Under the pieces are notes generated by a model. The model was not told the DNA's origin, did no database searches, and saw nothing but the letters and a program-made list of their open reading frames with translations. Both the position numbers and the translations under genes were made by a program. Source: Scenedesmus sp. PABB004 (lineage: Eukaryota). Taken from it: a stretch of 64,000 bases of DNA. The stretch spans positions 496,001-560,000 of the forward strand of contig JABVCE010000011.1 in the NCBI GenBank assembly GCA_014905635.1, written 5' to 3'. Position 1 is the stretch's first letter. Each line of letters begins with the position of its first letter. Shown here one piece after another: positions 26,738-59,250 of this stretch.

Positions 26738-27298
26738 GGCGGGGCGGCACGGTGCGGCACGGCGTGGGGGCGCGACCGGCGGCGTGCGCGTGCGCGGCGT
26801 GCGCAGCGGGCGAGCGCGCGGCTGGTGGCGGGCGCGCGCGGAGCGCTGCGCGCGGAGCGCCGCCGCGCGGGAGCTGGTGTGCGTGATGTGGATGCGTGGG
26901 CTGCGGGCGAGCTGCCGCGAGGGCAGCTCTGGGCGCCGCCGAGTTGGCGTTGGAATCGCGGCGCGAGCCCGCCGCGCAGAGACCTGCGGCGCGATGCGCC
27001 GTGCAGGACTGCCCGCGCCGCCGGGTGGCAGTCTATAACCACGTTGGCCCCTCGAACGGCGCCGCGCAGCGACCGCGCGAGACGGGGGCGAATTCCGGTG
27101 CCCGGCAGCGGTCCCGGGCAGCTTTTCGAGCCCTGCTGGTTGCCGCCATTCCGCCCGCTCGCCGTCCGTCAAGATCGCGGCTCGCGCCGGCTCGCGCAGG
27201 CTTTGTGCCGCACAGCAGCAGCAGCCGGCGTCGCGGCGGCCGTGCGCGCTGCACGGCTGGCCCGCGAGCGGCGCAGCCGGCGTGTTGTGCGCGTAGGG

Positions 27299-33327: not shown

Positions 33328-33661
33328 CGCGGCCGGCCGGGCTCTCGCTGCCGCTGCTGTCGCCGCTGCTGCTGCACGCGCCGGCGGCGGCGACGGTGCC
33401 TGCTGTGGATTGCGGTGGGAGGCAGACGAGCGCGGGCAGACTGGCGCAGGGAGCTGGAGGGCCTGCAGCTCAAGAACCCGAGCTCGCTTCAACCACTGCG
33501 CCGCTCTGCCGCTGGCTGCAAGAGCCTCCCCTCTGCCGCTGACCCCCGTTCCCCACTCCCAGCGCGTGGCCGGCCTCGCCGCTGTCAGATCAGCCGGCGC
33601 TCGGCGTCCAGCGCCCAGCTCGGGCCGGCGCGGCGCGGCGCGCGGCGGCGAGCACGCGAGG

Positions 33662-35348: not shown

Positions 35349-35419
35349 AAAGCTGACTCTGCCGCTGCCTGGCCTGGCCCCCGTCCCCTGATCACCCCAC
35401 CTCACGCCCGAGCTCACGG

Positions 35420-38400
35420 CTGCTCCGCTGCGGAGCGGTGGCGGCGCTCGCGGTGGCTTTGACGCCATCGCGCTGGACGGTGCTGAGGAGCAGGAGCTGG
35501 CGCGCAGCAGATGGCAGCGTTTGACACGCGCGCGTGAGGCCGCCACGACGACCGCCGTGCAACTGGCATGCTTACGAGCGCACACGCAGGCAGGCACCGC
35601 ACAACCTCAACCCGCCGCTGCTTGCTTGCTGCGCCCGCACACGACCCGCCAGCGCGCACAAGGCAGGCGCCGCCCGCCGCCCGCCGCGTCGTCTCACTCA
35701 CCCTCTCACTCACTCGTCCGGTGGCCGAGGCTGCACCACTGTCGTCACGAACCAGCCGGGCCGCGACGTGCCAGGCGCCCGTGCCTCTGCCGCCGCCGCG
35801 CCCGCCCACATCGCGCGCTGGCCCTCGTTCGCCACCGACACAAACACCTCCTGCACAAACCGCAGCGCGCGCAGCCACGCCCCCGCGTCCTCCGGCGCCA
35901 GCTCGAGCCCGAACAGCTCCAGCCAAGCAGTGCGCAGCGCGGTCATGTGCGCCAGGCCCATCAGCCCGGCTGGCGTGCACGCGCTGCCAGCCGGCACGCG
36001 CAGCAGCAGTTCGGTGACCTGCGTCACCGCGGCCAGCGCCACCACCTCCGCGTCGTTGCTGGCAGAAAAGCACAGCCAGCGCAGCCCGTTGAGACCAGCG
36101 AGCCCGCGCACCGCCGCCACGCGCTCCGCCTGGGTGCCGGCCTCAAAGCTGGGCCCGGCCCATTGCTCGCACGAACACAAATCAAGTGCCGTCAGCCCGG
36201 TGCAGTGCGCGGCCAGCCCCCGCAGCGTGGCGGGCGTCCACGGTGCAGACTGCGCCACATCGTGCAGGCTCGGAAACGCCTCAAACGGCACTGAGCCGCT
36301 GCCGAACAGCTCCACCACCGACTGGCAGGCTGTGCTGGCGCCGCCGACCCCGCCGCTGCTGCCCTCCACCCAGCAACCGTCCAGCCAGGTGAGCTGGCGC
36401 AAGCTGGCCAGGCTCGGAAGCGAGGCGCGCGACAGCTGGTTGATGCAGAGCCGCTGCAGCCCCGTCAGCGCCGCCAGCGCCGCCAGGAGGTGCGGGTCTG
36501 AGCCTTGGTCCACCTCGATGTTCAGGGCGGTGAGTCGCGTGCACCGCGCGAACGCCGCGCACTCCGCCTCGCCGAGCGTGGGCCAGACACGGGTGCCGTT
36601 GTCAATGTGCCCTCCACCCAGCAGCCGTCCACCCGGGTGAGCTGTCTCAAGCTGGCCAGGCTCGGCAGCGAGGCGCGCGACAGCTGGTTTATGGCGAGCC
36701 GCTGCAGCGCCGTCAGCACCGCCAGCGCAGCCAGGAGGTGCGGGTCGGAGCCTTGGTCCACCTGGATGTTCAGGGAGGTGAGCCGCACGCACTGCGCAAG
36801 CGCTGCGCACTCTGCCTCGTCCGGCGCCGCGTAGACAAGGGTGCTGCTGAAAAAATTAATGCTAGGATGCATCACAAACTCGAGGCTTCGCAGGCCGGTG
36901 CAGGCACCAATGGCGTCCAGGCCCTGGCGGTTGCAGACAAGGGGCAGCTCGAGCTCTGTGAGCGCTGGGAGGCCGGCCAGGAAGCCGTAGTGCTGCGCGC
37001 CGCGCAGATCGCCCATATCAACAACAAGGCTCGCCAGGCCGTTGATGGCAGCCAGCGCCAACAGGTGGCGCAGCGCAACGGGCGAGTGCAGCTGCATATC
37101 GAAGCGCACCGCGACGCGCGTGAGCTGCGTCGCCAGGCCGACTGCCCGCCACGCGGCGTCCCTGCCCTCCCAGCCGCTGCCGAGCGCCAGCTGCAGCGAC
37201 CGCAGGCCTGGCAGCTGCGCTGCCACTGCTGAGACCGCCGGTGCAATGGCCGCCGGCTCGCTGGCGGCGGCGCTGGCCGCCGCGTCCAGGCGCAGCGAGG
37301 TGAGCCGCGGCAGCCTGCAGGTGCAGGGGCGGGCAGGTGTGGCGGCGCGGAGGGTGAGCCGCCTCCCACGTGGAGTCACCTGGATGCCTGCTTGCCGCAC
37401 GCGCGCGCGCCACCTGCAAGACACCGGCACGCCCCTCCAGGCCGACCGCGCGCCGGCGCGCGCCGCCGCTGCTCACCTCGCCAGCGCGGCCAGCAGTGTC
37501 GCCAGCGGCGCGCCGGCGTCGCCGGGACTGCCGAGGGCGAAAGCCACCTCGCTGCAGCCGGTGAAGCGCTGCCCCAGGCGCCAGCGTGGCCGCGGGCGCG
37601 CAGTCGGCGGCGCGCATCGACAGCGCCGCCGCGCTGCTCTGCACGAGCCGCCGCGCCTCCCTGCAGGCCAGCGCGAACGCAGGAGCGCTTCCTTTGTCCG
37701 CCCGCAGCTTTGGCAGCAGCGCCTCCGCCCACACGCCGTCGTCCAGCGCCGCGAGCGCGCACAGCAGCGGGCTCGCTCCGTCGTCGTCGGGCGGCGCCGC
37801 GCAGCGCCGGGCGCGCGCGCGGGTCAGCATGGCGCCGCCTGGGCCGGTGCGGGGCGTCAGAGCGCTGCCGGGGTGCGGGGCGCGGAGTGGGCTGTGCGCG
37901 GCGCGCGCGGGCGGGCGCATCGCGTGGCGCGACGGCGGCGCAGGGGTTGAAGCCGCGGCGGGGCGGGGCGGGCGCGATGGGCTGGAGGCCGCGCTGCTGT
38001 GCGTGGCCCTGCGGGAGGTGCGGTGGCCTGGCGGCGGTCGCTGGCGGCAGGTGGCTGGTGCACAGCACGCGGGCCGCGCTGGCCAGGGCGGCCAGCCGCC
38101 CTGCGTCCGCTCGGCGAGGCTCGACCATCCCCCGCTCAGGCTTGAGCGCCCTGGTCAGGGCCCCTGCCGGCGGGGGCAGACTGGGCGGGGCGGCCTGCGG
38201 CTGTGCGGTGCTCGCGGCCCTGCCGCAGGCGCGCGCAGCGCACGCGCACGGTGGCCAGGTTAAGGCCCGCCGCGCGGCGCGCCCCGGCCCACGCAACTCC
38301 CGGCAGCGCCGCTCTCGCGCGCGCGTTCACGGCCGCTCCCACGGTTCCGCGCACGCCTCGTCGGACGTGTCCACAGCGTGCACGTCGGGCAGGCCGCCGC

Positions 38401-38420
38401 AGCCGCCCACCGCGCCGCCG
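35420..38420 (+). repeat. Segmental duplication copy A (gene remnant, LRR pseudogene and 'Y' flank)
   Basis: Aligns with 56260-58640, from gacgccatcgcgct(g/c)gacggtgctg to tccacagcgtgcacgtcgggcaggccgccgcagccgcccaccgcgccgccg. Confidence 0.9.
35710..37830 (-). pseudogene. F-box-like/LRR protein copy A; frameshift in exon 1 and an out-of-frame internal duplication/chimera at ~36610
   Basis: ALDDGVWAEALLPKL..APAFALACREARRLVQ; same single intron position as the 2569-4410 gene. The DQGSDPHLLAALA...LPSLASLRQLT block occurs twice in different frames. Confidence 0.8.
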
Positions 38421-38779
38421 TCGGCGGCGTCGGCGCCGCCCGCCGCGGCACCACGCCTCCAGAGCGGCGGCAGAGTTGCAGTAAGATTGATATGTCATCG
38501 GCGTGTGCTCCACGCGAGTGCGCTGCAGGCGTGGGGGGTGCGATGGCGACGGTGCCGGCCGGGCGCGCCTCCCACGGTTCAGTTCTCGTGTTCAGGTGAT
38601 GCTTGAAGGTGGTCGTTCTCCTGCAATCAATTGTGTTGTGTGTGTCGTGTCTTGCCTGCGCCCTCGTCAGCGCGCCCAGCATGCGCCCCCGCCCCCCCGC
38701 CTCCGGACCCGTCGCAGCGCGGCACGGCACGGCGCGGCGGGGGCCCCGTGGGCCCCGCGCTCGCGGCCAGGGCTGGTCA

Positions 38780-40960
38780 TCAGCAGCCCTCGAGCTTTGG
38801 CGGCACGCCCTGCGCGTAGGCAAAGACGTTCTTGGGGTCGTACTTTGCCTTGACGCCAGACAGGCGGCACAGGTTGCCCTGGTAGTACTTGTCCAGGGCC
38901 TCGCGGGGCAGGTAGTACTCGGTCGGGCAGTTCTGGTACGCGCCGCCGCTCAGCAGCCCGCGCCACCTGCGCGCCCCGGGTACGTGGCAACGCCGGCGGC
39001 GGCGGACGAAGGCCCGCGGTCAGCGGTCAGCCGCCGGCGGCGGCGCGCGGCGGGCGCCTGCCCCGCCAGCAGCGGGCCGGGGCGGGGCGGGGGGGGGGGC
39101 CTGCGGCCGCGCCGGCCGGGCCAGCGCGCGCGCCGCGCGCCTTGTGTAGAGGCCGCCAACCCAGGCCTGCGCGGCGTCGCGCGCGCCGGGGGCGCGGCCG
39201 TCAAACATAAAGTTGACCACCATGTCAAAGCCAGGGCCCCGGTGGGCGAAGGCCGTGCCGTTGGCGGGCACGTCGCTGATTGCGCCTGGGGACGCCAGCG
39301 CGGGTGGGGGGCGGGTTGCTCGAGCGCGGCGCGCGCCACGCGCCGCGTGCTCAAAACCACAGCTCCCTAAACCCCGACCCCTGAGCCCTGGGCCCTGGGC
39401 CCTGGACCGCCCCGGACGTTGCACACGCGCACCCTCCATCGTCTCAAACTCTATGTACGTGATGGCCGGCCCCGTGTAATTCTTCGGGTACGCGGGGCTG
39501 CTGGTGAAGCCGTTGATCAGCGACTCAAACTCGGCCAGCGACAGCGGCCGCGCCACGTACTCGCAGCGCTTGGCCGTCTGCAGCGGCGCGCCCCCCGCGG
39601 CCGCGTCGACGCGGAGGTCGATGCCCGCCGCCAGGTCGGGCATGGTGGTCCAGGGCCGGCGCTCAAACGCGTGCGCCGCGGGCTTGAGCGCGAGCAGCGG
39701 CGCCGCCGCGGCCCGCAGCGCCGCCTCCGCGTCCGCGATCGGCACGCCCTCGGGGGCGTACGTCGCGTAGATCACGAGCGTCTGCTCGCCCGTGCGCGCG
39801 TCGGCGAAGACGTGGGGCCACGTGGACATGCCGCGGGGGTCCTTGTCAAGGTACTTGTCCTGCCACGTCAGCAGCACGCGCGCGGCGCGGCGCGGGTCGG
39901 CCGCGATGCTCCACGACGCGTTGAACGTCGCCGCAAAGGCGAGCGGGAAGACCTTGTACGTGATGCGCGTGACGACGCCGTAGTTGCCGTGCCCGCCGCC
40001 GAGCAGCGCCCAGAACAGGTCGTCGTGGCGGCCCCCGCGGCCCGCGTCGACGGCGGAGCCGTCGGCCAGCACCACGCGGTAGCCGAGCACGTTGTCCACG
40101 CCGAGCCCGCGCCCCGCGGACAGGGCGCCCCACCCTCCTCCCAGGCTGAATCCGGCGATGCCGACGTTGGGGCAGGTGCCCGTCACGGCGGCCATGCCCT
40201 TGGCGGAGAGCGCGGCAAAAACGTCCCGGAAGCGCGCGCCCGCCTGGATGACAGCCTCGCGGCGCTCAGGCGACACGGTGATCTGCGTGCGCGTGTGCGT
40301 GTGAGTGGGTGTGTGAGTGGAGGGTGTATGGGGTGTGTGTGGGTGTGTGGGTGTGTGTGGGTGGTGTGTGTGTGTGGGAGGGTATGGGAGAGGGTGGGTG
40401 GGTGCGGAAAGGGCGCCGCGCCGTCGGCCGGCGCGGCGCGACGCGGGCAGTGATGAGCGCGCCTGTGTCATGGGCGACACGTCGATCACCACGCCGGCGC
40501 ACGACGAGTAGCCGCCCGAGTCGTGCCCGCCCGCGCGCGCGCAGAGCGGGAGGCCGCGCGCGCGCGCAAAGTTGACGGCGGCCTGCACGTCGCCCTCCGA
40601 CTCGGCGCGCACGATGAGCGCCGGCGGCGGCCGCGCAGCGTTGTAATAGGTGTTGATGGGCTCCACGTACTTGCGCGCCGCGTCAAACGCCGCCTCGCCG
40701 GGCAGCAGGACGGCGCCGCGCACGGCCTTTTTGAGCCGCTTCACGTCGGCGTCACCGGCGTGGAGCGGGGCGGCGCTGGCGCCCGGCGCCGCGCCAGGCC
40801 CGGCGGCGGCACCGGGCCGGCCGCTGCTGCTGCTGGCCGCCGCCGCCGCCTTGCGATCGCCGTCCGTGCCGGCCTTCGCCGGCCCGGCGGCCTGGCACAG
40901 AGCTCCGTGCGCCAGTGCCAGGAGGATCGCGGCCGCAATGGCCCGAGGGCCGCGTGCCAT
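38780..40960 (-). CDS. Secreted berberine bridge enzyme-like (BBE/AA7-type) FAD oxidase with bicovalent-FAD motifs; 4 exons
   Basis: Signal peptide; PALIVRAESEGDVQAAVNFA, RAGGHDSGGYS (His), GTCPNVGIAGFSLGGGWG (Cys), DLFWALLGGGHGNYGVVT; C-terminal YQN...YYQGNLCRLSGVKAKYDPKNVF. Introns GC-AG, GT-AG, GC-AG. Confidence 0.93.
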
Positions 40961-41223
40961 GTCGGCAGCCCTGCCGGCAGCCTCTGCCGAGCACCAGCAG
41001 CGATGGCGGCCGCTGACGGCACCGTAGCACGATGGCGACAGCACTGGGCTCGCGCCGTACTCGTGAACGCTGGCGGCGCGTCCTCATCACCACGCCCCCT
41101 CGAGTGCCGAGTTCTCAATGCGCCCCACGGCATGGTCCTCCGCGCGCGACCGACGGCGGCAGTCGCGATCTCGGCTTTGGCCCTGCGTGAGCTGTTCTGG
41201 CGGCACGAAGCACGCTCAGAGCC

Positions 41224-43429
41224 ATGGCGCGGCCTGCTGCTGAAGTAGTGTGGGGTGTCCTCCTGTGCGCCCTGCTGGCCGGGATGGTCGCTGCGCAAGG
41301 CCCCGCAGGTGCGTCAGGAGAGTGCTACCCGACCATGGCTCTCGCGTGGCAGGACGCGGCGTGGGCGCGCCAGGCCCGGGCCGAACGATCCGCGCATGGG
41401 CGTCCACCGCCCCGCGCGCCCTCCAACCCCGCGCGCCTCCGCCGCGCCCCCTCTCTCTCGCAGCCAGCGCGGCGGGCGTCACCGCCGTGCGCGGCGCGTT
41501 CCTGGACTATCTGGACGACCCCTTCTACGTCGACGAGAACTCCTCTGCGCTGGGTGCCTGACGGCCTGCTGGTCATCGCCAAGAACGGCACCATCCTGGC
41601 CTTTGGCCCCTACGCCGAGGTGTCCCCCAAGTTCCCCGGCGTCCCCACCACGGCCTACAAGGAGGGCAACGTGATCATGCCCGGCTTCATCGACACGCAC
41701 GTGCACTACGTGCAGTCGCGCGTGACCGGCGCGTACGGCCTCCACAAGTGCGCCGCCTGCGCCGCCGCCGCGCGGGGTGGCTGCCGCGCCGTGCCGAGCC
41801 ACGCGACGCGCGCGCTGCGCGCGGGCCGGCCGACCGCGCCGCGCCTACACCCCAAGGCCATCCGACCCCGCCGCGCTAAACCCGCAGGCCCGAGTGGCTT
41901 CAGGCCTACATCTTCCCCGAGGAGATCAAATGCAAGAACGCGAGCTACGCCCGTACCGTGGCCAACTGGTTCCTCGACGAGATGCTCCGCGCCGGCACGA
42001 CGACGGTGCAGAGGTGCGCGCGCGCAGCGGGCGCGCGCGCGGCGGGCGGGCGCGCGTGGCTGCGCTTGCGGCGGCGCACACGGCGCGCGCGACGGACGCG
42101 TGCGGCCACGCCGCGGCGCCGCTGACGGTCGCCCGCCCGCGCTCGCGGCGCGGCGCAGCTTCACCATGACGGCGCGCATCGCGACAGACGTGTTCTTCGA
42201 AGAGGCGGCCAAGCGCAACATGCGCGTCATCGCGGGCGTCACGGGCGTGGACCGCCCCGGCGAGGGCCCGCCCGGCTACACCGACACGGCCGCCCAGTTT
42301 GAGCGCGACTCGGTCGCGATGTACAACAAGTGGCACGGCAAGGGCCGCGCCCTATACGCCGTGACGCCGCGCTACGCGCCCGGCGTGACGAACGCGCTGC
42401 TCGCCAAGGCGGGCCACCTGTTCAAGACGCTCCCCGGGGTCTACATGAATACCCACCTCGCCGAGGTCACCGCTGACGTTGAGACCGTGAAGAAGCTTTT
42501 CCCTAACGCGACCGATTATTACAGTGCGCGCTGCATCAGCACCGGGCCGCGCCGGCGCGCGCCATCTTGCTTGGGGCCAAGGGTTTGGACACCGAGCAGC
42601 CCGCGCCGACGCCGCGCGCCGACGCGCGCGCGCTGACGCCCCACTCGCCCGCCGCGCCGACGCCCTCGCGACGCGCCGCGCCGCGCCGCGCCGCGCAGAC
42701 GTGTTTGAGATGCACGGGCTCGTCGGCCCTCGCACGACGTTCGGCCACAGCATTTACCTGTCTCCCAGCGAGTTTGAGCGCATGAGCAAGCAGGGGTCGG
42801 GCATCTCCTTCTGCCCGGCGTCCAACCTCTTCCTTGGCAGCGGCCTGTTCAAGCTCGCGACCGCCAAGGGCACCAAGACGCCCGTGCGCGTCGGCCTCGG
42901 CACCGACATGGCCGGCGGCGACTACTTCAGCCAGCTCAAGGTGGGCGGCCCCTCACCCTCGGGCGCGCGCGCCGCGCGCCGCGCTCCGGCGCCCCGCCAG
43001 CGCCCCGGGGCACGCGCGGCGTCCTGCGCGTGCTGCACTGCCCCCCCCCCCCCCCCCCCCCCCCACACACACCACCACCACCACCACCACCGCCACCACA
43101 AGGTGCTGAACAACGGCTACAAGGTCGCGATGCTGCAGAACTACCCGGTGTCTGGGCTGAAGCTCCTCTTCCTCCCCATGCTCGGCGCTGCGCGCGCGCT
43201 CTATCTCGACGACCGCCTCGGCTCGTTCACGCCCGGGCGCGAGGCCGACTTTGTGGTGCTCAACGCCACGGGCACGCGCGAGCTCGCATTCCGCGCCAAC
43301 GGCAACGTCACGATCGGCACCGACCGTGACCGGCTCGAGTTCCTCATGTTTGGCGTCGCCGTGCTCGGCGACGAGCGCGTCGTGGCCGCCACGTACGTCG
43401 CCGGCAAGCGCCTGTACAGCGCCGCGTGA
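41224..43429 (+). pseudogene. guaD: Secreted-type guanine deaminase (amidohydrolase) copy 1, with a 2-nt deletion at ~41547 (pseudogene or sequence error)
   Basis: Otherwise nearly identical to copies 2 and 3; reads tcctctgcgc versus tcctctgtgcgc, shifting the frame in exon 2. Confidence 0.75.
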
Positions 43430-44083
43430 TCGCGGGTGGCGCCCGGCGCCGCGCGGCGCCCGCGGCGCGGGCCCGCCCGGGGCCGGCGGCCAGTGGGGGC
43501 CCGGACCTGGCCGTCTAGTGCGCGGGCAGGGCAACCTCGGGCCTTTAGTTGCATCTTATGGTATCTAGCGCTGGAGCGCTGGCAAGCTGACCCACCTACC
43601 TCGCTGCAGCGGCATTTTGTTCATACCACTCAATCCCAAGCTGACATCATCGATCTTTACCGTACGAAGGGGCTCGACGGTCTCTCCTTCACGCATGTGC
43701 ATGCCAGCATGAACCGCTCATTTAGGGCGCACCTCCACCATCAGCTGTGGGGACCCCAGCGGTGGGCAGCGGATCCTCAACCACCTACGGCCTCTGAACG
43801 CCACGCAACATCTGCTGGGACCTGCACGCAGCGCTGTCCCACCGCACAGAGCCAGGCCGCCGGCCGGCTGTTTACAAGCGGACCTCGCACTTTCCTTGCC
43901 TTGATGGGCGCCTGCTCGGGTGGTCGGTGGGTGGGCGGGTGGCCGGTGGGTGGGCGCATGCATTCGGCCACGTGCGAGAGCCTTCCATGCCAGAGCCTTC
44001 CGTGCCACGTGGCTCGTGCACGGTCAACGGTCATCACCATACCATCATGGGGCAGAGCTGTGTGTGCGTGGTCGTTCCGCTCT

Positions 44084-44370
<287 letters not shown>

Positions 44371-44652
44371 GTTGGGGGCCCGCGCGTCCGACAGGGGCCG
44401 GCCGGCAGCGGGAGCGGGAGTCGCTGGCGCGGACGCCGGCGGCGCGCCCGGCGGCGCGCCCGCCGGCGGCGCGCCAGTGGGCGTCCTACTACTACTGTGG
44501 GGCGGGGCGGGGACGGCCTGCGGCTGCGCGGTGCTCGCGGGCCTGCCGCAGGCGCGCGCTGCGCACGCGGTGGCCAGGTTACGGCCCGCCCCGCAATGGC
44601 CCGCGCAACTCTCTGCAGCGCTCGCCCGCGCGCGCGTTCACGGGCGCTCCCG

Positions 44653-45141
44653 ACCACGCCGGCGCACGAGGAGTAGCCTTGACCTTGAGTAGCCGCCCGA
44701 GTCGTGCCCGCCCGCGCGCGCGCAGAGCGGGAGGCCGCGCGCGCGCGCAAAGTTGACGGCGGCCTGCACGTCGCCCTCCGACTCGGCGCGCACGATGAGC
44801 GCCGGCGGCGGCCGCGCAGCGTTGTAATAGGTGTTGATGGGCTCCACGTACTTGCGCGCCGCGTCAAACGCCGCCTCGCCGGGCAGCAGGACGGCGCCGC
44901 GCACGGCCTTTTTGAGCCGCTTCACGTCGGCGTCACCGGCGTGGAGCGGGGCGGCGCTGGCGCCCGGCGCCGCGCCAGGCCCGGCGGCGGCACCGGGCCG
45001 GCCGCTGCTGCTGCTGGCCGCCGCCGCCGCCTTGCGATCGCCGTCCGTGCCGGCCTTCGCCGGCCCGGCGGCCTGGCACAGAGCTCCGTGCGCCAGTGCC
45101 AGGAGGATCGCGGCCGCAATGGCCCGAGGGCCGCGTGCCAT
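44653..45141 (-). pseudogene. 3'-truncated BBE oxidase fragment (chimeric, exon 1 only)
   Basis: Matches 40488-40960 except for a 16-bp insertion and a substitution at the GGYS codons; truncated shortly after. Confidence 0.9.
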
Positions 45142-45404
45142 GTCGGCAGCCCTGCCGGCAGCCTCTGCCGAGCACCAGCAGCGATGGCGGCCGCTGACGG
45201 CACCGTAGCACGATGGCGACAGCACTGGGCTCGCGCCGTACTCGTGAACGCTGGCGGCGCGTCCTCATCACCACGCCCCCTCGAGTGCCGAGTTCTCAAT
45301 GCGCCCCACGGCATGGTCCTCCGCGCGCGACCGACGGCGGCAGTCGCGATCTCGGCTTTGGCCCTGCGTGAGCTGTTCTGGCGGCACGAAGCACGCTCAG
45401 AGCC

Positions 45405-47611
45405 ATGGCGCGGCCTGCTGCTGAAGTAGTGTGGGGTGTCCTCCTGTGCGCCCTGCTGGCCGGGATGGTCGCTGCGCAAGGCCCCGCAGGTGCGTCAGGA
45501 GAGTGCTACCCGACCATGGCTCTCGCGTGGCAGGACGCGGCGTGGGCGCGCCAGGCCCGGGCCGAACGATCCGCGCATGGGCGTCCACCGCCCCGCGCGC
45601 CCTCCAACCCCGCGCGCCTCCGCCGCGCCCCCTCTCTCTCGCAGCCAGCGCGGCGGGCGTCACCGCCGTGCGCGGCGCGTTCCTGGACTATCTGGACGAC
45701 CCCTTCTACGTCGACGAGAACTCCTCTGTGCGCTGGGTGCCTGACGGCCTGCTGGTCATCGCCAAGAACGGCACCATCCTGGCCTTTGGCCCCTACGCCG
45801 AGGTGTCCCCCAAGTTCCCCGGCGTCCCCACCACGGCCTACAAGGAGGGCAACGTGATCATGCCCGGCTTCATCGACACGCACGTGCACTACGTGCAGTC
45901 GCGCGTGACCGGCGCGTACGGCCTCCACAAGTGCGCCGCCTGCGCCGCCGCCGCGCGGGGTGGCTGCCGCGCCGTGCCGAGCCACGCGACGCGCGCGCTG
46001 CGCGCGGGCCGGCCGACCGCGCCGCGCCTACACCCCAAGGCCATCCGACCCCGCCGCGCTAAACCCGCAGGCCCGAGTGGCTTCAGGCCTACATCTTCCC
46101 CGAGGAGATCAAATGCAAGAACGCGAGCTACGCCCGTACCGTGGCCAACTGGTTCCTCGACGAGATGCTCCGCGCCGGCACGACGACGGTGCAGAGGTGC
46201 GCGCGCGCAGCGGGCGCGCGCGCGCGCGGGCGGGCGCGCGTGGCTGCGCTTGCGGCGGCGCACACGGCGCGCGCGACGGACGCGTGCGGCCACGCCGCGG
46301 CGCCGCTGACGGTCGCCCGCCCGCGCTCGCGGCGCGGCGCAGCTTCACCATGACGGCGCGCATCGCGACAGACGTGTTCTTCGAAGAGGCGGCCAAGCGC
46401 AACATGCGCGTCATCGCGGGCGTCACGGGCGTGGACCGCCCCGGCGAGGGCCCGCCCGGCTACACCGACACGGCCGCCCAGTTTGAGCGCGACTCGGTCG
46501 CGATGTACAACAAGTGGCACGGCAAGGGCCGCGCCCTATACGCCGTGACGCCGCGCTACGCGCCCGGCGTGACGAACGCGCTGCTCGCCAAGGCGGGCCA
46601 CCTGTTCAAGACGCTCCCCGGGGTCTACATGAATACCCACCTCGCCGAGGTCACCGCTGACGTTGAGACCGTGAAGAAGCTTTTCCCTAACGCGACCGAT
46701 TATTACAGTGCGCGCTGCATCAGCACCGGGCCGCGCCGGCGCGCGCCATCTTGCTTGGGGCCAAGGGTTTGGACACCGAGCGGCCCGCGCCGACGCCGCG
46801 CGCCGACGCGCGCGCGCTGACGCCCCACTCGCCCGCCGCGCCGACGCCCTCGCGACGCGCCGCGCCGCGCCGCGCCGCGCAGACGTGTTTGAGATGCACG
46901 GGCTCGTCGGCCCTCGCACGACGTTCGGCCACAGCATTTACCTGTCTCCCAGCGAGTTTGAGCGCATGAGCAAGCAGGGGTCGGGCATCTCCTTCTGCCC
47001 GGCGTCCAACCTCTTCCTTGGCAGCGGCCTGTTCAAGCTCGCGACCGCCAAGGGCACCAAGACGCCCGTGCGCGTCGGCCTCGGCACCGACATGGCCGGC
47101 GGCGACTACTTCAGCCAGCTCAAGGTGGGCGGCCCCTCACCCTCGGGCGCGCGCGCCGCGCGCCGCGCTCCGGCGCCCCGCCAGCGCCCCGGGGCACGCG
47201 CGGCGTCCTGCGCGTGCTGCACTGCCCCCCCCCCCCACCCCACCCACACACCACCACCACCACCACCACCACCGCCACCACAAGGTGCTGAACAACGGCT
47301 ACAAGGTCGCGATGCTGCAGAACTACCCGGTGTCTGGGCTGAAGCTCCTCTTCCTCCCCACGCTCGGCGCTGCGCGCGCGCTCTATCTCGACGACCGCCT
47401 CGGCTCGTTCACGCCCGGGCGCGAGGCCGACTTTGTGGTGCTCAACGCCACGGGCACGCGCGAGCTCGCATTCCGCGCCAACGGCAACGTCACGATCGGC
47501 ACCGACCGTGACCGGCTCGAGTTCCTCATGTTTGGCGTCGCCGTGCTCGGCGACGAGCGCGTCGTGGCCGCCACGTACGTCGCCGGCAAGCGCCTGTACA
47601 GCGCCGCGTGA
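45405..47611 (+). CDS. guaD: Secreted-type guanine deaminase (amidohydrolase) copy 2; 6 exons
   Basis: Signal peptide MARPAAEVVWGVLLCALLAGMVAAQ; PGFIDTHVHYVQ, EWLQAYIFPEE, LRAGTTT, YAVTPRYA, NTHLAE, FGHSIYL, FCPASNLFLGSGLF, VGLGTDMAGG, GSFTPGREADFVVL, GDERVVAATYVAG. Confidence 0.92.
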
Positions 47612-48265
47612 TCGCGGGTGGCGCCCGGCGCCGCGCGGCGCCCGCGGCGCGGGCCCGCCCGGGGCCGGCGGCCAGTGGGGGCCCGGACCTGGCCGTCTAG
47701 TGCGCGGGCAGGGCAACCTCGGGCCTTTAGTTGCATCTTATGGTATCTAGCGCTGGAGCGCTGGCAAGCTGACCCACCTAACTCGCTGCAGCGGCATTTT
47801 GTTCATACCACTCAATCCCAAGCTGACATCATCGATCTTTACCGTACGAAGGGGCTCGACGGTCTCTCCTTCACGCATGTGCATGCCAGCATGAACCGCT
47901 CATTTAGGGCGCACCTCCACCATCAGCTGTGGGGACCCCAGCGGTGGGCAGCGGATCCTCAACCACCTACGGCCTCTGAACGCCACGCAACATCTGCTGG
48001 GACCTGCACGCAGCGCTGTCCCACCGCACAGAGCCAGGCCGCCGGCCGGCTGTTTACAAGCGGACCTCGCACTTTCCTTGCCTTGATGGGCGCCTGCTCG
48101 GGTGGTCGGTGGGTGGGCGGGTGGCCGGTGGGTGGGCGCATGCATTCGGCCACGTGCGAGAGCCTTCCATGCCAGAGCCTTCCGTGCCACGTGGCTCGTG
48201 CACGGTCAACGGTCATCACCATACCATCATGGGGCAGAGCTGTGTGTGCGTGGTCGTTCCGCTCT

Positions 48266-48703
<438 letters not shown>

Positions 48704-48984
48704 TTGGGGGCCCGCGCGTCCGACAGGGGCCGGCCGGCAGCGGGAGCGGGAGTCGCTGGCGCGGACGCCGGCGGCGCGCCCGGCGGCGCGCCCGCCGGCG
48801 GCGCGCCAGTGGGCGTCCTACTACTACTGTGGGGCGGGGCGGGGACGGCCTGCGGCTGCGCGGTGCTCGCGGGCCTGCCGCAGGCGCGCGCTGCGCACGC
48901 GGTGGCCAGGTTACGGCCCGCCCCGCAATGGCCCGCGCAACTCTCTGCAGCGCTCGCCCGCGCGCGCGTTCACGGGCGCTCCCG

Positions 48985-49473
48985 ACCACGCCGGCGCACG
49001 AGGAGTAGCCTTGACCTTGAGTAGCCGCCCGAGTCGTGCCCGCCCGCGCGCGCGCAGAGCGGGAGGCCGCGCGCGCGCGCAAAGTTGACGGCGGCCTGCA
49101 CGTCGCCCTCCGACTCGGCGCGCACGATGAGCGCCGGCGGCGGCCGCGCAGCGTTGTAATAGGTGTTGATGGGCTCCACGTACTTGCGCGCCGCGTCAAA
49201 CGCCGCCTCGCCGGGCAGCAGGACGGCGCCGCGCACGGCCTTTTTGAGCCGCTTCACGTCGGCGTCACCGGCGTGGAGCGGGGCGGCGCTGGCGCCCGGC
49301 GCCGCGCCAGGCCCGGCGGCGGCACCGGGCCGGCCGCTGCTGCTGCTGGCCGCCGCCGCCGCCTTGCGATCGCCGTCCGTGCCGGCCTTCGCCGGCCCGG
49401 CGGCCTGGCACAGAGCTCCGTGCGCCAGTGCCAGGAGGATCGCGGCCGCAATGGCCCGAGGGCCGCGTGCCAT
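48985..49473 (-). pseudogene. 3'-truncated BBE oxidase fragment (chimeric, exon 1 only)
   Basis: Same as 44653-45141. Confidence 0.9.
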
Positions 49474-49736
49474 GTCGGCAGCCCTGCCGGCAGCCTCTGC
49501 CGAGCACCAGCAGCGATGGCGGCCGCTGACGGCACCGTAGCACGATGGCGACAGCACTGGGCTCGCGCCGTACTCGTGAACGCTGGCGGCGCGTCCTCAT
49601 CACCACGCCCCCTCGAGTGCCGAGTTCTCAATGCGCCCCACGGCATGGTCCTCCGCGCGCGACCGACGGCGGCAGTCGCGATCTCGGCTTTGGCCCTGCG
49701 TGAGCTGTTCTGGCGGCACGAAGCACGCTCAGAGCC

Positions 49737-51941
49737 ATGGCGCGGCCTGCTGCTGAAGTAGTGTGGGGTGTCCTCCTGTGCGCCCTGCTGGCCGGGATGG
49801 TCGCTGCGCAAGGCCCCGCAGGTGCGTCAGGAGAGTGCTACCCGACCATGGCTCTCGCGTGGCAGGACGCGGCGTGGGCGCGCCAGGCCCGGGCCGAACG
49901 ATCCGCGCATGGGCGTCCACCGCCCCGCGCGCCCTCCAACCCCGCGCGCCTCCGCCGCGCCCCCTCTCTCTCGCAGCCAGCGCGGCGGGCGTCACCGCCG
50001 TGCGCGGCGCGTTCCTGGACTATCTGGACGACCCCTTCTACGTCGACGAGAACTCCTCTGTGCGCTGGGTGCCTGACGGCCTGCTGGTCATCGCCAAGAA
50101 CGGCACCATCCTGGCCTTTGGCCCCTACGCCGAGGTGTCCCCCAAGTTCCCCGGCGTCCCCACCACGGCCTACAAGGAGGGCAACGTGATCATGCCCGGC
50201 TTCATCGACACGCACGTGCACTACGTGCAGTCGCGCGTGACCGGCGCGTACGGCCTCCACAAGTGCGCCGCCTGCGCCGCCGCCGCGCGGGGTGGCTGCC
50301 GCGCCGTGCCGAGCCACGCGACGCGCGCGCTGCGCGCGGGCCGGCCGACCGCGCCGCGCCTACACCCCAAGGCCATCCGACCCCGCCGCGCTAAACCCGC
50401 AGGCCCGAGTGGCTTCAGGCCTACATCTTCCCCGAGGAGATCAAATGCAAGAACGCGAGCTACGCCCGTACCGTGGCCAACTGGTTCCTCGACGAGATGC
50501 TCCGCGCCGGCACGACGACGGTGCAGAGGTGCGCGCGCGCAGCGGGCGCGCGCGCGGCGGGCGGGCGCGCGTGGCTGCGCTTGCGGCGGCGCACACGGCG
50601 CGCGCGACGGACGCGTGCGGCCACGCCGCGGCGCCGCTGACGGTCGCCCGCCCGCGCTCGCGGCGCGGCGCAGCTTCACCATGACGGCGCGCATCGCGAC
50701 AGACGTGTTCTTCGAAGAGGCGGCCAAGCGCAACATGCGCGTCATCGCGGGCGTCACGGGCGTGGACCGCCCCGGCGAGGGCCCGCCCGGCTACACCGAC
50801 ACGGCCGCCCAGTTTGAGCGCGACTCGGTCGCGATGTACAACAAGTGGCACGGCAAGGGCCGCGCCCTATACGCCGTGACGCCGCGCTACGCGCCCGGCG
50901 TGACGAACGCGCTGCTCGCCAAGGCGGGCCACCTGTTCAAGACGCTCCCCGGGGTCTACATGAATACCCACCTCGCCGAGGTCACCGCTGACGTTGAGAC
51001 CGTGAAGAAGCTTTTCCCTAACGCGACCGATTATTACAGTGCGCGCTGCATCAGCACCGGGCCGCGCCGGCGCGCGCCATCTTGCTTGGGGCCAAGGGTT
51101 TGGACACCGAGCGGCCCGCGCCGACGCCGCGCGCCGACGCGCGCGCGCTGACGCCCCACTCGCCCGCCGCGCCGACGCCCTCGCGACGCGCCGCGCCGCG
51201 CCGCGCCGCGCAGACGTGTTTGAGATGCACGGGCTCGTCGGCCCTCGCACGACGTTCGGCCACAGCATTTACCTGTCTCCCAGCGAGTTTGAGCGCATGA
51301 GCAAGCAGGGGTCGGGCATCTCCTTCTGCCCGGCGTCCAACCTCTTCCTTGGCAGCGGCCTGTTCAAGCTCGCGACCGCCAAGGGCACCAAGACGCCCGT
51401 GCGCGTCGGCCTCGGCACCGACATGGCCGGCGGCGACTACTTCAGCCAGCTCAAGGTGGGCGGCCCCTCACCCTCGGGCGCGCGCGCCGCGCGCCGCGCT
51501 CCGGCGCCCCGCCAGCGCCCCGGGGCACGCGCGGCGTCCTGCGCGTGCTGCACTGCCCCCCCCCCCACCCCACCCACACACCACCACCACCACCACCACC
51601 ACCGCCACCACAAGGTGCTGAACAACGGCTACAAGGTCGCGATGCTGCAGAACTACCCGGTGTCTGGGCTGAAGCTCCTCTTCCTCCCCACGCTCGGCGC
51701 TGCGCGCGCGCTCTATCTCGACGACCGCCTCGGCTCGTTCACGCCCGGGCGCGAGGCCGACTTTGTGGTGCTCAACGCCACGGGCACGCGCGAGCTCGCA
51801 TTCCGCGCCAACGGCAACGTCACGATCGGCACCGACCGTGACCGGCTCGAGTTCCTCATGTTTGGCGTCGCCGTGCTCGGCGACGAGCGCGTCGTGGCCG
51901 CCACGTACGTCGCCGGCAAGCGCCTGTACAGCGCCGCGTGA
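49737..51941 (+). CDS. guaD: Secreted-type guanine deaminase (amidohydrolase) copy 3; 6 exons
   Basis: Same exons and motifs as copy 2; frame intact. Confidence 0.92.
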
Positions 51942-52595
51942 TCGCGGGTGGCGCCCGGCGCCGCGCGGCGCCCGCGGCGCGGGCCCGCCCGGGGCCGGCG
52001 GCCAGTGGGGGCCCGGACCTGGCCGTCTAGTGCGCGGGCAGGGCAACCTCGGGCCTTTAGTTGCATCTTATGGTATCTAGCGCTGGAGCGCTGGCAAGCT
52101 GACCCACCTAACTCGCTGCAGCGGCATTTTGTTCATACCACTCAATCCCAAGCTGACATCATCGATCTTTACCGTACGAAGGGGCTCGACGGTCTCTCCT
52201 TCACGCATGTGCATGCCAGCATGAACCGCTCATTTAGGGCGCACCTCCACCATCAGCTGTGGGGACCCCAGCGGTGGGCAGCGGATCCTCAACCACCTAC
52301 GGCCTCTGAACGCCACGCAACATCTGCTGGGACCTGCACGCAGCGCTGTCCCACCGCACAGAGCCAGGCCGCCGGCCGGCTGTTTACAAGCGGACCTCGC
52401 ACTTTCCTTGCCTTGATGGGCGCCTGCTCGGGTGGTCGGTGGGTGGGCGGGTGGCCGGTGGGTGGGCGCATGCATTCGGCCACGTGCGAGAGCCTTCCAT
52501 GCCAGAGCCTTCCGTGCCACGTGGCTCGTGCACGGTCAACGGTCATCACCATACCATCATGGGGCAGAGCTGTGTGTGCGTGGTCGTTCCGCTCT

Positions 52596-52915
<320 letters not shown>

Positions 52916-53196
52916 TTGGGGGCCCGCGCGTCCGACAGGGGCCGGCCGGCAGCGGGAGCGGGAGTCGCTGGCGCGGACGCCGGCGGCGCGCCCGGCGGCG
53001 CGCCCGCCGGCGGCGCGCCAGTGGGCGTCCTACTACTACTGTGGGGCGGGGCGGGGACGGCCTGCGGCTGCGCGGTGCTCGCGGGCCTGCCGCAGGCGCG
53101 CGCTGCGCACGCGGTGGCCAGGTTACGGCCCGCCCCGCAATGGCCCGCGCAACTCTCTGCAGCGCTCGCCCGCGCGCGCGTTCACGGGCGCTCCCG

Positions 53197-53710
53197 ACCA
53201 CGCCGGCGCACGAGGAGTAGCCTTGACCTTGAGTAGCCGCCCGAGTCGTGCCCGCCCGCGCGCGCGCAGAGCGGGAGGCCGCGCGCGCGCGCAAAGTTGA
53301 CGGTGGCCTGCACGTCGCCCTCCGACTCGGCACGCACGATGAGCGCCGGCGGCGGCCGCGCAGCGTTGTAATAGGTGTTGATGGGCTCCACGTACTTGCG
53401 CGCCGCGTCAAACGCCGCCTCGCCGGGCAGCAGGACGGCGCCGCGCACGGCCTTCTTGAGCTGCTTCACGTCGGCGTCACCGGCGTGGAGCGGGGCGGCG
53501 CTGGCGCCCGGCGCCGCGCCAGGCCCGGCGGCGGCACCGGGCCCAGCGGCGGCACCGGGCCGGCCGCTGCTGCTGCTGGCCGCCGCCGCCGCCGCCGCCT
53601 GGTGAGCACCGCCCCTGCCCGCCTTCGCAGGCCCGGCAGCTTGGACAAGAGCTCCGCGCGCCAGTGCCAGCGCCAGCAGGATCGTGGCCGCAGCGGCTCC
53701 GTGGCGCGAT
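53197..53710 (-). pseudogene. Diverged BBE paralog fragment (BBE'), truncated at the 3' side and lacking its ATG
   Basis: AAAATILLALALARGALVQAAG...DVKQLKK...DVQATVNF differs from the full gene. The start region is replaced by palindromes. Confidence 0.88.
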
Positions 53711-55787: not shown

Positions 55788-56259
55788 ACCGCCGCGCGCG
55801 AGCGCAGCCACGCAGCTGCTGAGGGCAGCGAGTCGAAGCGCGCGCGGCGACTGCCTCTCCGCTTCGACGACCGAGGCGGGGAGGGGCGGGGGCCAGCGGC
55901 TGGCGCGGCGCGGCGGCCCGCTCCAGCCGCGGCGTGATCGGAGCTCACGCGCAGGCTGGAGGCGCAGGAGCTGCTGGACGCGCAGCGCCGCCCCCGGCGG
56001 GATGCAGCGCTGGTGCTCCGGGCCTGCGTGCGGGGCTGGCGTGCGTGGCGCGCGGCGCGGCAGCGGGGCGAGGTGCCAGCCCTGCAGCAGCAGCAGCCGG
56101 GGCTCGCTGCCGCTGTCGGCGCGGGCAGGAGTCGCCGGCGCCGGCGCGCCCCGCCGGCGCGCCAGCGGGCGCACTACTTGGCTGCGGCTGTGCGGTGCTC
56201 GAGCTCCCGGCAGCGCCCGCTTGCGCGCGCGTTTGCGGCTGCTCCGCCACGGATCAGCG

Positions 56260-58640
56260 CCGCCGCTCGCGGCGGCTTCGACGCCATCGCGCTCGACGGT
56301 GCTGGCGATCAGGAGGAGGAGGAGCTGGCGCAGCAGATGGCAGCGTTTGACGCATGAGGCCGCCTCGCCGTGCAACTGGCATGCTTACGAGCGCACACGT
56401 AAGCAAGCGCCGCACAACCTCAACGCGCAGCTGCCTGCAGCGGCCGCACGACCCGCCAGCGCGCACAAGGCAGGCGCTGGCCGCCGCCCGCCGCGTTTAT
56501 CGCACTCATCCTCTCACTCACACGTCCTCGCTGCCGGAAGGCCTAGGCTGCACCGCTGTCGCCAAGAACCAGCCGGGCCGCGCGATGCCAAGTGGGCGCG
56601 CCTCTGCCACCGCGCCCGCCCACATCGCGCACTGGCCCTCGTTCGCCACCGACACAAACACCTCCTGCACAAACCGCAGCGCGCGCAGCCACGCCTGTGC
56701 ATCCTTCTTGCGCAGCTCGAGCCCCAACAGTTCCAGCCAAGCAGTGCGCAGCACGGTCATGCGCGCCATGCCCATCACCCCGGCTGGCGTGCACGCGCTG
56801 CCGGCCGGCACGCGCAGCAGCAGTTCGGTGACCTGTGTCGCCGCGGCCAGCGCCGCCACCTGCGCGTCGTCGCTGGCTGACAGATCCAACATGCGCAGCC
56901 CCTTGCGGCCGGCCAGGCCGCGCACCGCCGCCACACGCTCCGCCTGGGCGCCGGCCTCAAAGCTGGGCCCGGCCCATTGCTCGCACGAACACAAATCAAG
57001 TGCCGTCAGCCCGGTGCAGTGCGCGGCCAGCCCCCGAGGGAACAAGAGGCAAACGTGGTGACACGGGTGCCGTTGACATTGACACGGGTGCCGTTGTCAA
57101 TGTGTAATGCACCGCAAACAGAAGGTCTCGCAGGCCGGTGCAGGCGCCGATGGCGGGCACGCCCTGGTGATCGCACACGAGAGGCAGCTGAAGCTGCGTG
57201 AGCGCCGGGAGGCTCGCCAGGAAGCCATAGTGCTGCGTGCGGCGCAGAGTGCCCACATCAACAACGAGGCTCGCCAGGCCGTTGATGGCGGTCAGTGCCG
57301 GCAGGTGGCGCAGCGTGACGGCTGGGTGCACGTCCTGGTCAAAGCGCACCGCGACGCGCGTGAGCTGCGTCGCCAGGCCGACTGCCCGCCACGCGGCGTC
57401 CCTGCCCTCCCAGCCGCTGCCGAGCGCCAGCTGCAGCGACCGCAGGCCTGGCAGCTGCGCTGCCACTGCTGAGACCGCCGGTGCAATGGCCGCCGGCTCG
57501 CTGGCGGCGGCGCTGGCCGCCGCGTCCAGGCGCAGCGAGGTGAGCCGCGGCAGCCTGCAGGTGCAGGGGCGGGCAGGTGTGGCGGCGCGGAGGGTGAGCC
57601 GCCTCCCACGTGGAGTCACCTGGATGCCTGCTTGCCGCACGCGCGCGCGCCACCTGCAAGACACCGGCACGCCCCTCCAGGCCGACCGCGCGCCGGCGCG
57701 CGCCGCCGCTGCTCACCTCGCCAGCGCGGCCAGCAGTGTCGCCAGCGGCGCGCCGGCGTCGCCGGGACTGCCGAGGGCGAAAGCCACCTCGCTGCAGCCG
57801 GTGAAGCGCTGCCCCAGGCGCCAGCGTGGCCGCGGGCGCGCAGTCGGCGGCGCGCATCGACAGCGCCGCCGCGCTGCTCTGCACGAGCCGCCGCGCCTCC
57901 CTGCAGGCCAGCGCGAACGCAGGAGCGCTTCCTTTGTCCGCCCGCAGCTTTGGCAGCAGCGCCTCCGCCCACACGCCGTCGTCCAGCGCCGCGAGCGCGC
58001 ACAGCAGCGGGCTCGCTCCGTCGTCGGGCGGCGGCGCGCCGCGCCGGGCGCGCGCGCGGGTCAACATGGCGCCTTCTGGCACGCCGCGGGAGTCCGGAGC
58101 GCTGCCGGGGCGGGGCGGAGTGTGGACTGCTCGGCGCGCGCAGGCTGCTGCGTGCGGCGCGGTGCGACGGCGGCGCAGGGGCTCAAGCCGCGGCGGGGCG
58201 GGGCGGGCCGCGACGGGCTGGAGGCCGCCGCTGCTGTGCGTGTCCTTGGGCAGGTGCGGTGGCCTGGCGGCGGTCGCTGGCGGCCGGCGGCTGGTGCACA
58301 GCACGCGGGCCGCGCTGGCCAGGGCGGCTGCGCCCGCTCGCCAAGGCTCGACCATCCCCACCCCAGCCCGCGCGCCCTAGTCAGGGCCCCTGCCGGCGGG
58401 GGCAGACTGGGCGGGGCGGCCTGCGGCTGTGCGGTGCTCGCGGCCCTGCCGCAGGCGCGCGCAGCGCACGCGCACGGTGGCCAGGTTACGGCCCGCCGCC
58501 GCGGCCCACGCAACTCTCCGCAACGCCCGCTCTCACGCACGCCTTCAGGGCAGCTCCCACGTCTCCGCGCACGCCTCGTCGGACATGTCCACAGCGTGCA
58601 CGTCGGGCAGGCCGCCGCAGCCGCCCACCGCGCCGCCGCT
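56260..58640 (+). repeat. Segmental duplication copy B
   Basis: Aligns with 35420-38420; nearly identical over ~57343-58025. Confidence 0.9.
56518..58067 (-). pseudogene. F-box-like/LRR protein copy B; same exon-1 frameshift as copy A plus an internal deletion with filler at ~57035-57080
   Basis: Lacks the VWPTLGEAEC...WTPATL block present in copy A. Confidence 0.82.
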
Positions 58641-59250
58641 GACGGCGTTGGCGGGCCACGGAGCCTCGGCTGGTGGCTCCTTGGCTCAGGCGGCTCCAGA
58701 GCGGCGAGCCGCGCGGCGGCGGGGTCAGCCGCGTCGGCTGCGCGCCGCTGCGCCTCGTGCGCCGCCTACGCGGCGTCGCCGCCGGCGGGCTCTGGCGCGT
58801 CGCCGGGCTCACCCTGGCGCTCCGGCAGCGACGTGTAGCGAGCGGACGCGGGCGGCCGGCGCGCGGGCAGCCGGCGCGTGGGCGGCCGGCGCGGGGCGCG
58901 CCGCGCCGTCGCCGAGCCGGCGGCGGGTGGCAGCCGGAGCATCATCGGTGCGTGCTGCGACCGAGAGCGGAGCAGGCGGACGCGGCGCGGTTGTTGTGCT
59001 TGGCGGCGGCGGCGCGGGCGCCCCGGGCGGCCGTCAAAGCCCTACGTCGCGGCGCAGGCCCGTCAGCCCCCGGCGTGCCACTGGCCAAACACTGATCGGT
59101 GGAGGAGCGCGCCGCCTGGGTGCAGCAGCAGGGGGCCGGCGGCAGCAGCAGCGGCAGCAGCGGCAGGCGCGGCGGCGGCATCCCCAGCCCGCGCGCGCAC
59201 CTGCCCCACGCCGCGCGGCCGGCAGCTCACGGCCAGCTCACAGCCCCGCC

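Follow-up and report, generated by a model that had tools for sequence, protein, structure and literature searches.

What does a green alga do with a guanine deaminase-like gene whose product carries an apparent export signal, and does the flavin oxidase gene beside it belong to the same pathway? The question is raised by a stretch of 64,000 nucleotides (nt) of the Scenedesmus sp. PABB004 genome (assembly GCA_014905635.1, contig JABVCE010000011.1, positions 496,001 to 560,000 of the forward strand), referred to here as the window, in whose own coordinates all positions are given. In this window, a gene for a GuaD-like deaminase lies head-to-head with a gene for a BBE-like flavin adenine dinucleotide (FAD)-linked oxidase, and the deaminase gene is present in three tandem copies. 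The initial annotation of the locus proposed that the two enzymes form a co-regulated module acting on a purine-like compound outside the cytosol. Our analysis favours a different explanation, to which we assign a probability of roughly 55%: the deaminase would be a horizontally acquired, exported guanine or guanine-like deaminase, amplified in tandem for nitrogen release outside the cytosol, and the oxidase would be an unrelated neighbour.

The deaminase gene and its relatives

The three copies of the deaminase gene have the following structures:

41224..43429, plus strand, GuaD-like gene copy 1 (frameshifted); exons 41224-41308, 41464-41747, 41888-42013, 42159-42523, 42699-42940, 43103-43429
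45405..47611, plus strand, GuaD-like gene copy 2 (intact, 476 amino acids (aa)); exons 45405-45489, 45645-45930, 46071-46196, 46343-46707, 46883-47124, 47285-47611
49737..51941, plus strand, GuaD-like gene copy 3 (intact); exons 49737-49821, 49977-50262, 50403-50528, 50674-51038, 51214-51455, 51615-51941

Copies 2 and 3 encode identical 476-aa products. For copy 2, a single GT-AG splice solution was obtained, and it equals the deposited 476-aa protein (P0068; KAF8062981.1, KAF8062983.1), N-terminal exon included. The gene has five GT-AG introns of 140–175 nt; ahead of the first lies a signal-like exon of 28 codons, and the catalytic domain follows behind it. In copy 1, exon 2 is 2 bp short (TG missing after 41545), so that with normal splice sites a stop is reached after 60 codons, and exon 6 carries an additional Thr-to-Met change. 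The model deposited for this copy (KAF8062979.1, 457 aa) bypasses the lesion by omitting 19 residues. It was also observed that the unspliced reading from the ATG of copy 1 (41224-41565) crosses intron 1 free of stops and continues in the frame that exon 2 has after the deletion; if a transcript kept the intron, its protein would be without the first beta strand, and the match of frames is probably a coincidence.

The product clearly belongs with the bacterial GuaD type, as the initial annotation had suggested. Five exons tile positions 4–431 of the 433 positions of the NCBIfam model NF006679, and their scores (76.2, 41.7, 124.5, 93.2 and 82.5) give a rough sum of ~418 bits against a cut-off of 351. 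For the equivalog model TIGR02967, the equally rough sum of exon scores was ~345 bits, under the cut-off of 375.4, so equivalog level was not reached. In the PDB, the best matches were Bradyrhizobium Blr3880 (2OOD, E 1e-113) and Escherichia coli GuaD (6OHB, 5e-96). Membership of the cluster of 8-oxoguanine deaminase, NdmH and AtzB was ruled out, since a representative of this type (7WW2) matched at only 5e-14 vs 1e-113 for 2OOD; the NCBIfam 8-oxoguanine deaminase profile matched single exons only, with 17–40 bits.

The metal ligands were said to be intact, and the alignment with 2OOD, 6OHB and 2UZ9 confirms it. The HxH pair (HVH), the His of GHS, the His of HLAEV, the Asp of GTD and the catalytic Glu of the HxxE motif all align, and these columns were invariant in an alignment of 15 sequences. 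Equally invariant were the Gln of HVHYVQ and the Arg of PRYA, which we take to be the guanine contacts of the purine pocket (HxHxxQ and PRxA). Blr3880 and E. coli GuaD thus share with the algal protein the metal site (HxH, His, His, Asp), the catalytic Glu and the pocket Gln and Arg. They differ from it in having no signal peptide, whereas the algal protein is extended at its N-terminus by ~30 residues, encoded on a separate exon, and has five introns, six N-glycosylation sequons and eight clade-specific replacements that include PRFA to PRYA and HxSEN to HLAEV. The Atlas model of the deaminase had a pTM of 0.90. When it was aligned by fold with bacterial GuaD clusters, the match began at residue 30, which places the first ~29 residues outside the fold.

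Several lines of evidence support the view that this is a true nuclear gene. Besides the five introns, the GC content of the gene resembles that of its flanks (69–82% throughout the window), the neighbouring genes are eukaryotic (among them a proteasome alpha subunit and an SNF5 homologue), and the largest exon of the deaminase gene matches 'guaD [Scenedesmus sp. PABB004]', on a 1.28-Mb contig, at 99% identity. Bacterial contamination as the source of the gene was ruled out by the introns, the host GC content and the eukaryotic neighbours.

In the set of the 120 best relatives of the 476-aa product, this strain was the only named alga. The nearest relatives were the metagenome proteins P0003, P0005 and P0006 (59–63% identity), plus P0004. 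The cluster of P0006 includes a protein from a Gemmataceae metagenome-assembled genome, the sole taxon among the 20 clusters looked up. In a midpoint-rooted maximum likelihood tree of 51 sequences, the algal protein joined P0003–P0006 with support of 100/100, and this clade was nested in successive well-supported metagenome groups, with a Roseibium group as its sister. The terminal branch of the algal protein was long (0.62 vs 0.17–0.36 for its clade mates). P0002 (76% identical over exon 4) and P0004 carry extra sequence exactly at Scenedesmus introns 4 and/or 5, and look like eukaryotic pieces. A ~12-residue insertion after the HxxE motif is found in P0005 and P0006 and is absent from the algal protein.

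The supported nesting among prokaryotic sequences, the introns, the host-like composition and the linkage to eukaryotic genes together suggest horizontal transfer, and acquisition by the alga from a bacterial lineage would be the parsimonious direction. Metagenome members of the apparently exported group (P0003, P0005, P0006; P0007–P0012; P0224–P0232) are 51–63% identical to the algal protein and have a hydrophobic N-terminal extension directly before the (I/V)RG motif; unlike the algal gene, they are uninterrupted open reading frames (ORFs) with few sequons. There is a precedent in an animal, though not in an alga: excerpts of a study on Caenorhabditis elegans describe its guanine deaminases as horizontally acquired from bacteria, a case of a bacterial GuaD moving into a eukaryote and duplicating there (PMC13419446).

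Export signals and pocket changes

The initial annotation stated that both proteins have signal peptides, and both N-termini are indeed signal-like by our own hydrophobicity rule. Each has a short charged stretch followed by 15–17 hydrophobic residues, with small residues before a possible cleavage site, and the Kyte-Doolittle maximum over 10 residues at the deaminase N-terminus is 2.7. For the relatives, we applied a crude rule, which asks for 12 or more extra residues at the N-terminus and, within them, a 10-residue window with a Kyte-Doolittle hydrophobicity of 2.0 or higher. The rule was passed by 19 of the 21 closest relatives (the alga's own model included) vs 3 of the next 99, which makes an exported location likelier. 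Typical extensions of the relatives end in an Ala-x-Ala-like motif immediately ahead of the conserved (I/V)RG with which the domain begins, and the N-terminus of P0005 has a lipobox-like LSGC. The sequons noted earlier are also real: the algal deaminase has six N-x-S/T sites (NSS, NGT, NAS, NAT, NAT, NVT), compared with 0–1 in three full-length clade mates and 0–4 across 24 relatives, which hints at passage through the secretory pathway.

In the literature, no paper was found using 'periplasmic', 'extracellular' or 'secreted guanine deaminase', and no relevant paper on a guanine deaminase with a signal peptide in an alga; neither a deaminase nor an oxidase was mentioned in a cell-wall proteomics paper that names strain PABB004. 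Other enzymes for nutrient scavenging, the L-amino-acid oxidase LAO1 among them, are secreted into the periplasm by green algae, and vacuolar guanine crystals serve many microalgae as a nitrogen store. Desmodesmus, a genus with a bearing on the latter, is a relative within the Scenedesmaceae.

If the enzyme does enter the secretory pathway, its destination could be the guanine storage vacuole, where it would deaminate crystalline guanine in situ. Such a route agrees with the signal-like N-terminus and the six sequons; guanine pools have been studied in Desmodesmus (PMC7824393, in the excerpts available), and a 2025 study of Chlamydomonas, in its excerpted text, does not decide whether guanine deaminase is located inside the vacuole (PMC12541418). 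According to the same excerpts, Chlamydomonas GDA1 rises ~38-fold after 2 h of nitrogen starvation (PMC12541418). However, the predictions given there class GDA1 as 'Other' and GDA2 as 'Chloroplast' (PMC12541418, Dataset S1), so that both are predicted to be non-secretory, unlike the deaminase studied here with its signal-like N-terminus, and the apparent export of the bacterial relatives is periplasmic or extracellular, which equally fits the scavenging of external guanine. We consider delivery to storage vacuoles unlikely. The Chlamydomonas reinhardtii proteins are of the same family by annotation (PF01979), and ammonium release from guanine reserves has likewise been proposed for them; they were not among the 120 best relatives of the Scenedesmus deaminase, a statement that involves no direct sequence comparison.

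The pocket-motif changes pointed out in the initial annotation (HYVQ, PRYA and HLAEV) are genuine and clade-specific, and they are three of a larger set. When six clade sequences were compared with 119 other relatives, eight replacements were fixed in the clade (P112V, I117T, Q123H, L124K, L125P, F139C, F238Y and N269V/P) at positions that were 85–100% conserved in the others. These positions lie next to three motifs (HxH..Q, PR(F)A, HxxE) and within the stretch that immediately follows HxH. The algal protein thus lacks the near-universal Phe after the pocket Arg (F238Y; Phe in 99% of the 119) and the near-universal Asn after the catalytic Glu (N269V; Asn in 97%). P0003–P0006 share the full signature of eight positions. 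In a profile search of 1.84 billion representatives, the clade signature appeared, among the best 150, only in P0002. Among more distant relatives of GuaD, Val at the HYPQ position and Tyr at the PRFA position each turn up sporadically by themselves; what marks the clade is thus their combination.

Because the changes adjoin the catalytic motifs, a shift in substrate range is a real possibility, though the core guanine-binding residues remain. In its strong form, the exported enzyme would no longer be a guanine deaminase and would act on a modified guanine, an ammeline-like triazine or a pterin. The eight fixed positions, the long algal branch and the TIGR02967 sum below its cut-off all point that way. 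Excerpts of one study describe N2,N2-dimethylguanine hydrolases, GuaD relatives that prefer modified guanine (PMC13054789); these belong to the AtzB/8-oxoguanine cluster and not to canonical GuaD. On the other hand, the metal ligands, the catalytic Glu and Asp and the presumed guanine contacts Gln and Arg are all kept, the match to GuaD is far better than that to the 8-oxoguanine deaminase/AtzB type, and two of the replacements are seen sporadically elsewhere in GuaD. A complete change of substrate thus appears rather doubtful.

The tandem array and the neighbouring oxidase

The oxidase gene, the spacer and the repeated units are arranged as follows:

38780..40960, minus strand, BBE-like FAD-linked oxidase gene (Pfam PF01565 and PF08031)
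40960-40463, 40282-39433, 39285-39141 and 38966-38780, minus strand, oxidase exons in a 4-exon model (559 aa), a splice model from sequence
40961..41223, head-to-head spacer of 263 bp, repeated at 45142-45404 and 49474-49736, the three copies identical
40506..44686, tandem unit 1 (4,181 bp): oxidase codons 1-152, spacer, GuaD copy 1 and a microsatellite at 44084-44369
44687..49018, tandem unit 2 (4,332 bp), with a microsatellite at 48266-48701
49019..53230, tandem unit 3 (4,212 bp), with a microsatellite at 52596-52913
53231..53692, minus strand, partial fourth unit: oxidase 5' stub of ~89-91% DNA identity, its first codons diverged, no deaminase after it
44686..45141 and 49018-49473, minus strand, oxidase 5' stubs: 152 codons plus a 15-codon tail, a 167-aa ORF

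Units 1–3 lie head to tail and are 98–99% identical. Each begins inside oxidase exon 1 and ends past a (TG)n(GTGCGC)n microsatellite, which has 20.8, 46.8 and 28.8 GTGCGC hexamers in units 1, 2 and 3, respectively. Outside the microsatellite, 13 of 3,499 aligned columns were variable; copies 2 and 3 differ at two of them, both in intronic homopolymers. All unit junctions, that of the partial fourth unit included, are identical and have a 16-nt insertion relative to the intact oxidase, so that a single founding duplication followed by unequal crossing-over is the simplest history. A C-rich/CAC-rich tract in intron 5 varies among the copies (43041-43069, 47224-47251 and 51555-51581) and appears as poly-His/Pro in lists of ORFs.

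The amplification of deaminase dosage proposed in the initial annotation holds with one correction: there are three tandem copies, of which copy 1 is frameshifted and only copies 2 and 3 are intact. Its statement that each extra copy keeps the shared promoter is likewise right for the 263-bp spacer, present in every copy, but the oxidase pieces beyond it are 152-codon stubs. These stubs, with 152 oxidase residues and a short tail, end within the FAD-binding domain. The duplication unit thus holds no working oxidase, and the sole intact oxidase faces the frameshifted copy 1.

The triplication, the frameshift or both might be an assembly artefact, as the region is repeat-rich with 72–75% GC, the copies are nearly identical, long microsatellites flank the array, and metagenome contigs of a ~96% identical relative (see below) show an intact TG at 41545. 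However, the microsatellites differ in length and 13 other columns vary, three separate guaD proteins have been deposited for the strain, and the diverged fourth stub has the same junction. We regard an artefact as very unlikely.

The oxidase itself is a BBE-like FAD-linked oxidase, with an FAD_binding_4 domain and a C-terminal BBE domain. The PF01565 (FAD_binding_4) match is split between exon 1 (profile positions 1–54) and exon 2 (58–138), and PF08031 (BBE) scored 47.7 bits against a cut-off of 20.6 in exon 4, the last, whose stop codon ends at 38780. The motifs GGH and GTCPNVG (pattern GxCxxVG) are present and are, we assume, the histidyl and cysteinyl FAD attachment sites. Residues ~72–555 of the spliced model align with bacterial BBE-like oxidoreductases at 30–37% identity. 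The best PDB matches were remote: an FAD-binding oxidoreductase (E 9e-28), followed by EncM and 6-hydroxy-D-nicotine oxidase (E 2e-20). The domains and both motifs are common to the BBE-like/VAO family (EncM, 6-hydroxy-D-nicotine oxidase, carbohydrate oxidases), but the oxidase of the window is only 30–37% identical to any homologue found, none of them a characterised close relative. Its best match was a GC-rich, algal-looking sequence with an extra stretch near the position of oxidase intron 1. Two features of the splice model were unusual. Introns 1 (40283-40462) and 3 (39142-38967) need GC-AG sites, with the donors cag|GCGCGC and aag|GCGCGC, and intron 1, which is in frame and rich in CA repeats, would add a His/Thr/Pro-rich stretch if retained.

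The head-to-head starts 263 bp apart, as described in the initial annotation, are borne out by the first bases of the two ATGs (oxidase 40960, minus strand; GuaD 41224, plus strand), and the spacer is a putative bidirectional promoter, an activity predicted from its position. In two freshwater metagenome runs of one study, contigs of 469 and 415 nt that were ~96% identical ran from the start of the oxidase across the spacer into exon 1 of the deaminase. The oxidase–deaminase arrangement is therefore kept in a close relative, since single contigs bridge both starts. The TG missing from copy 1 was present in both runs. Exon 1 of this relative has an in-frame change of +3 nt, and its spacer has changes of +1 and +2 nt. 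In one of the bridging contigs there is a gap of 1 nt at 40937, within the first eight oxidase codons, which may reflect a different oxidase start in the relative or a contig error. A further metagenome run gave only short, near-identical oxidase pieces, with no coverage at the frameshift.

Do the two enzymes then form an extracellular pathway, acting one after the other on a purine-like N-heterocycle and co-regulated from the shared 263-bp promoter? Their close head-to-head placement, the signal-like N-termini of both, the contigs that bridge the pair in the ~96% identical relative, the Tat-like export signals of some bacterial oxidase relatives, and the presence of N-heterocycle enzymes such as 6-hydroxy-D-nicotine oxidase among the PDB matches of the oxidase are all compatible with it. 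Against it, the amplified unit has no functional oxidase and the intact oxidase stands opposite a broken deaminase, and the nearest kin of the two differ, being bacterial for the deaminase and algal-looking for the oxidase. Furthermore, a BBE-like gene within 8–10 kb of GuaD was found in none of 160 prokaryotic loci (at least 160, from genomes and metagenomes, 2.08 Mb), although this is weak evidence because these loci hold cytosolic-type GuaD of at most 54% identity and none is from the exported clade. To our knowledge, no BBE-like enzyme acts on xanthine or guanine. The coupled pathway, which was the source of the initial excitement about this locus, is thus unsupported beyond adjacency, and we consider it quite unlikely. 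Because the extra units hold only stubs and GuaD had no BBE-like neighbour in the prokaryotic loci, the oxidase is probably a neighbour that happens to share the spacer, and not a pathway partner.

Genomic setting and biological meaning

The genes flanking the array are ordinary eukaryotic ones:

22945-24567, minus strand, match to the proteasome alpha N-terminal signature, a housekeeping neighbour
25188-27035, plus strand, C2H2 zinc-finger match, an ordinary eukaryotic neighbour
26887-28182, plus strand, ORF matching Pfam Sulfatase (77.5 bits), ~11 kb upstream of the oxidase/deaminase pair
31802-33469, minus strand, SNF5 match, a housekeeping neighbour

Arylsulfatases of green algae are secreted nutrient-scavenging enzymes. 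In the flanks scanned (21.7–38.9 kb and 53.5–63.8 kb, ~15 kb per side), no purine-metabolism genes were found. A ~3-kb segment is directly duplicated at 35417-38435 and 56236-58653, on either side of the array, with 85–91% identity; it contains leucine-rich-repeat-like ORFs without a Pfam match, and suggests the trace of an older, larger segmental duplication around the array.

Taken together, the following course of events would account for the locus. A Scenedesmus-like green alga would have gained a zinc amidohydrolase gene from a bacterial lineage in which the enzyme is exported by means of Sec or lipoprotein signal peptides. The putative signal peptide of the algal protein has a first exon to itself, so that the enzyme most likely enters the secretory pathway and would work outside the cytosol, be it in a vacuole or in the space of the periplasm or wall. 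Its substrate there would be guanine or a close analogue, and the ammonium released would serve as a nitrogen source, either by scavenging or by mobilisation of vacuolar guanine. Recent unequal crossing-over would then have produced the three-unit array with its two intact copies, every copy carrying the 263-bp spacer and a dead 152-codon oxidase stub. The presumably secreted BBE-like flavin oxidase would be unrelated, its 5' end and promoter merely carried along.

Several points weigh against this reading. The tree was rooted at its midpoint, and the bacteria-to-alga direction is therefore a matter of parsimony only. The evidence that exon 1 is used consists of the splice model, the deposited annotation and weak support from indels in the metagenome relative. 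With eight replacements beside the catalytic motifs, guanine itself may not be the substrate, and the frameshift of copy 1 could be an assembly error. As for the oxidase, the prokaryotic loci lie outside the exported clade and do not cover pairing in the donor lineage, and the conservation of the pair in the metagenome relative, like the presence of the spacer in every copy, also fits shared regulation.

A bolder proposal, which we regard as possible but short of probable, is that the deaminase represents a new exported branch of GuaD with a remodelled pocket, common to planctomycete-like bacteria and some green algae by gene transfer. Its members would act outside the cytosol on solid or extracellular guanine (storage vacuoles included) or on another amino-heterocycle, and the amplification would reflect selection for nitrogen release. 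The finding also draws attention to an entire set of apparently exported GuaD homologues in bacteria, on which no literature was found in our searches, and it offers a clean example of a bacterial gene turned into a multi-intron algal gene. In the excerpted Chlamydomonas work, the site of guanine deamination, the first catabolic step, was left open (PMC12541418). A GuaD-family enzyme with a putative signal peptide, apparently derived from bacteria and amplified in an alga, is a concrete candidate for localisation and assay.

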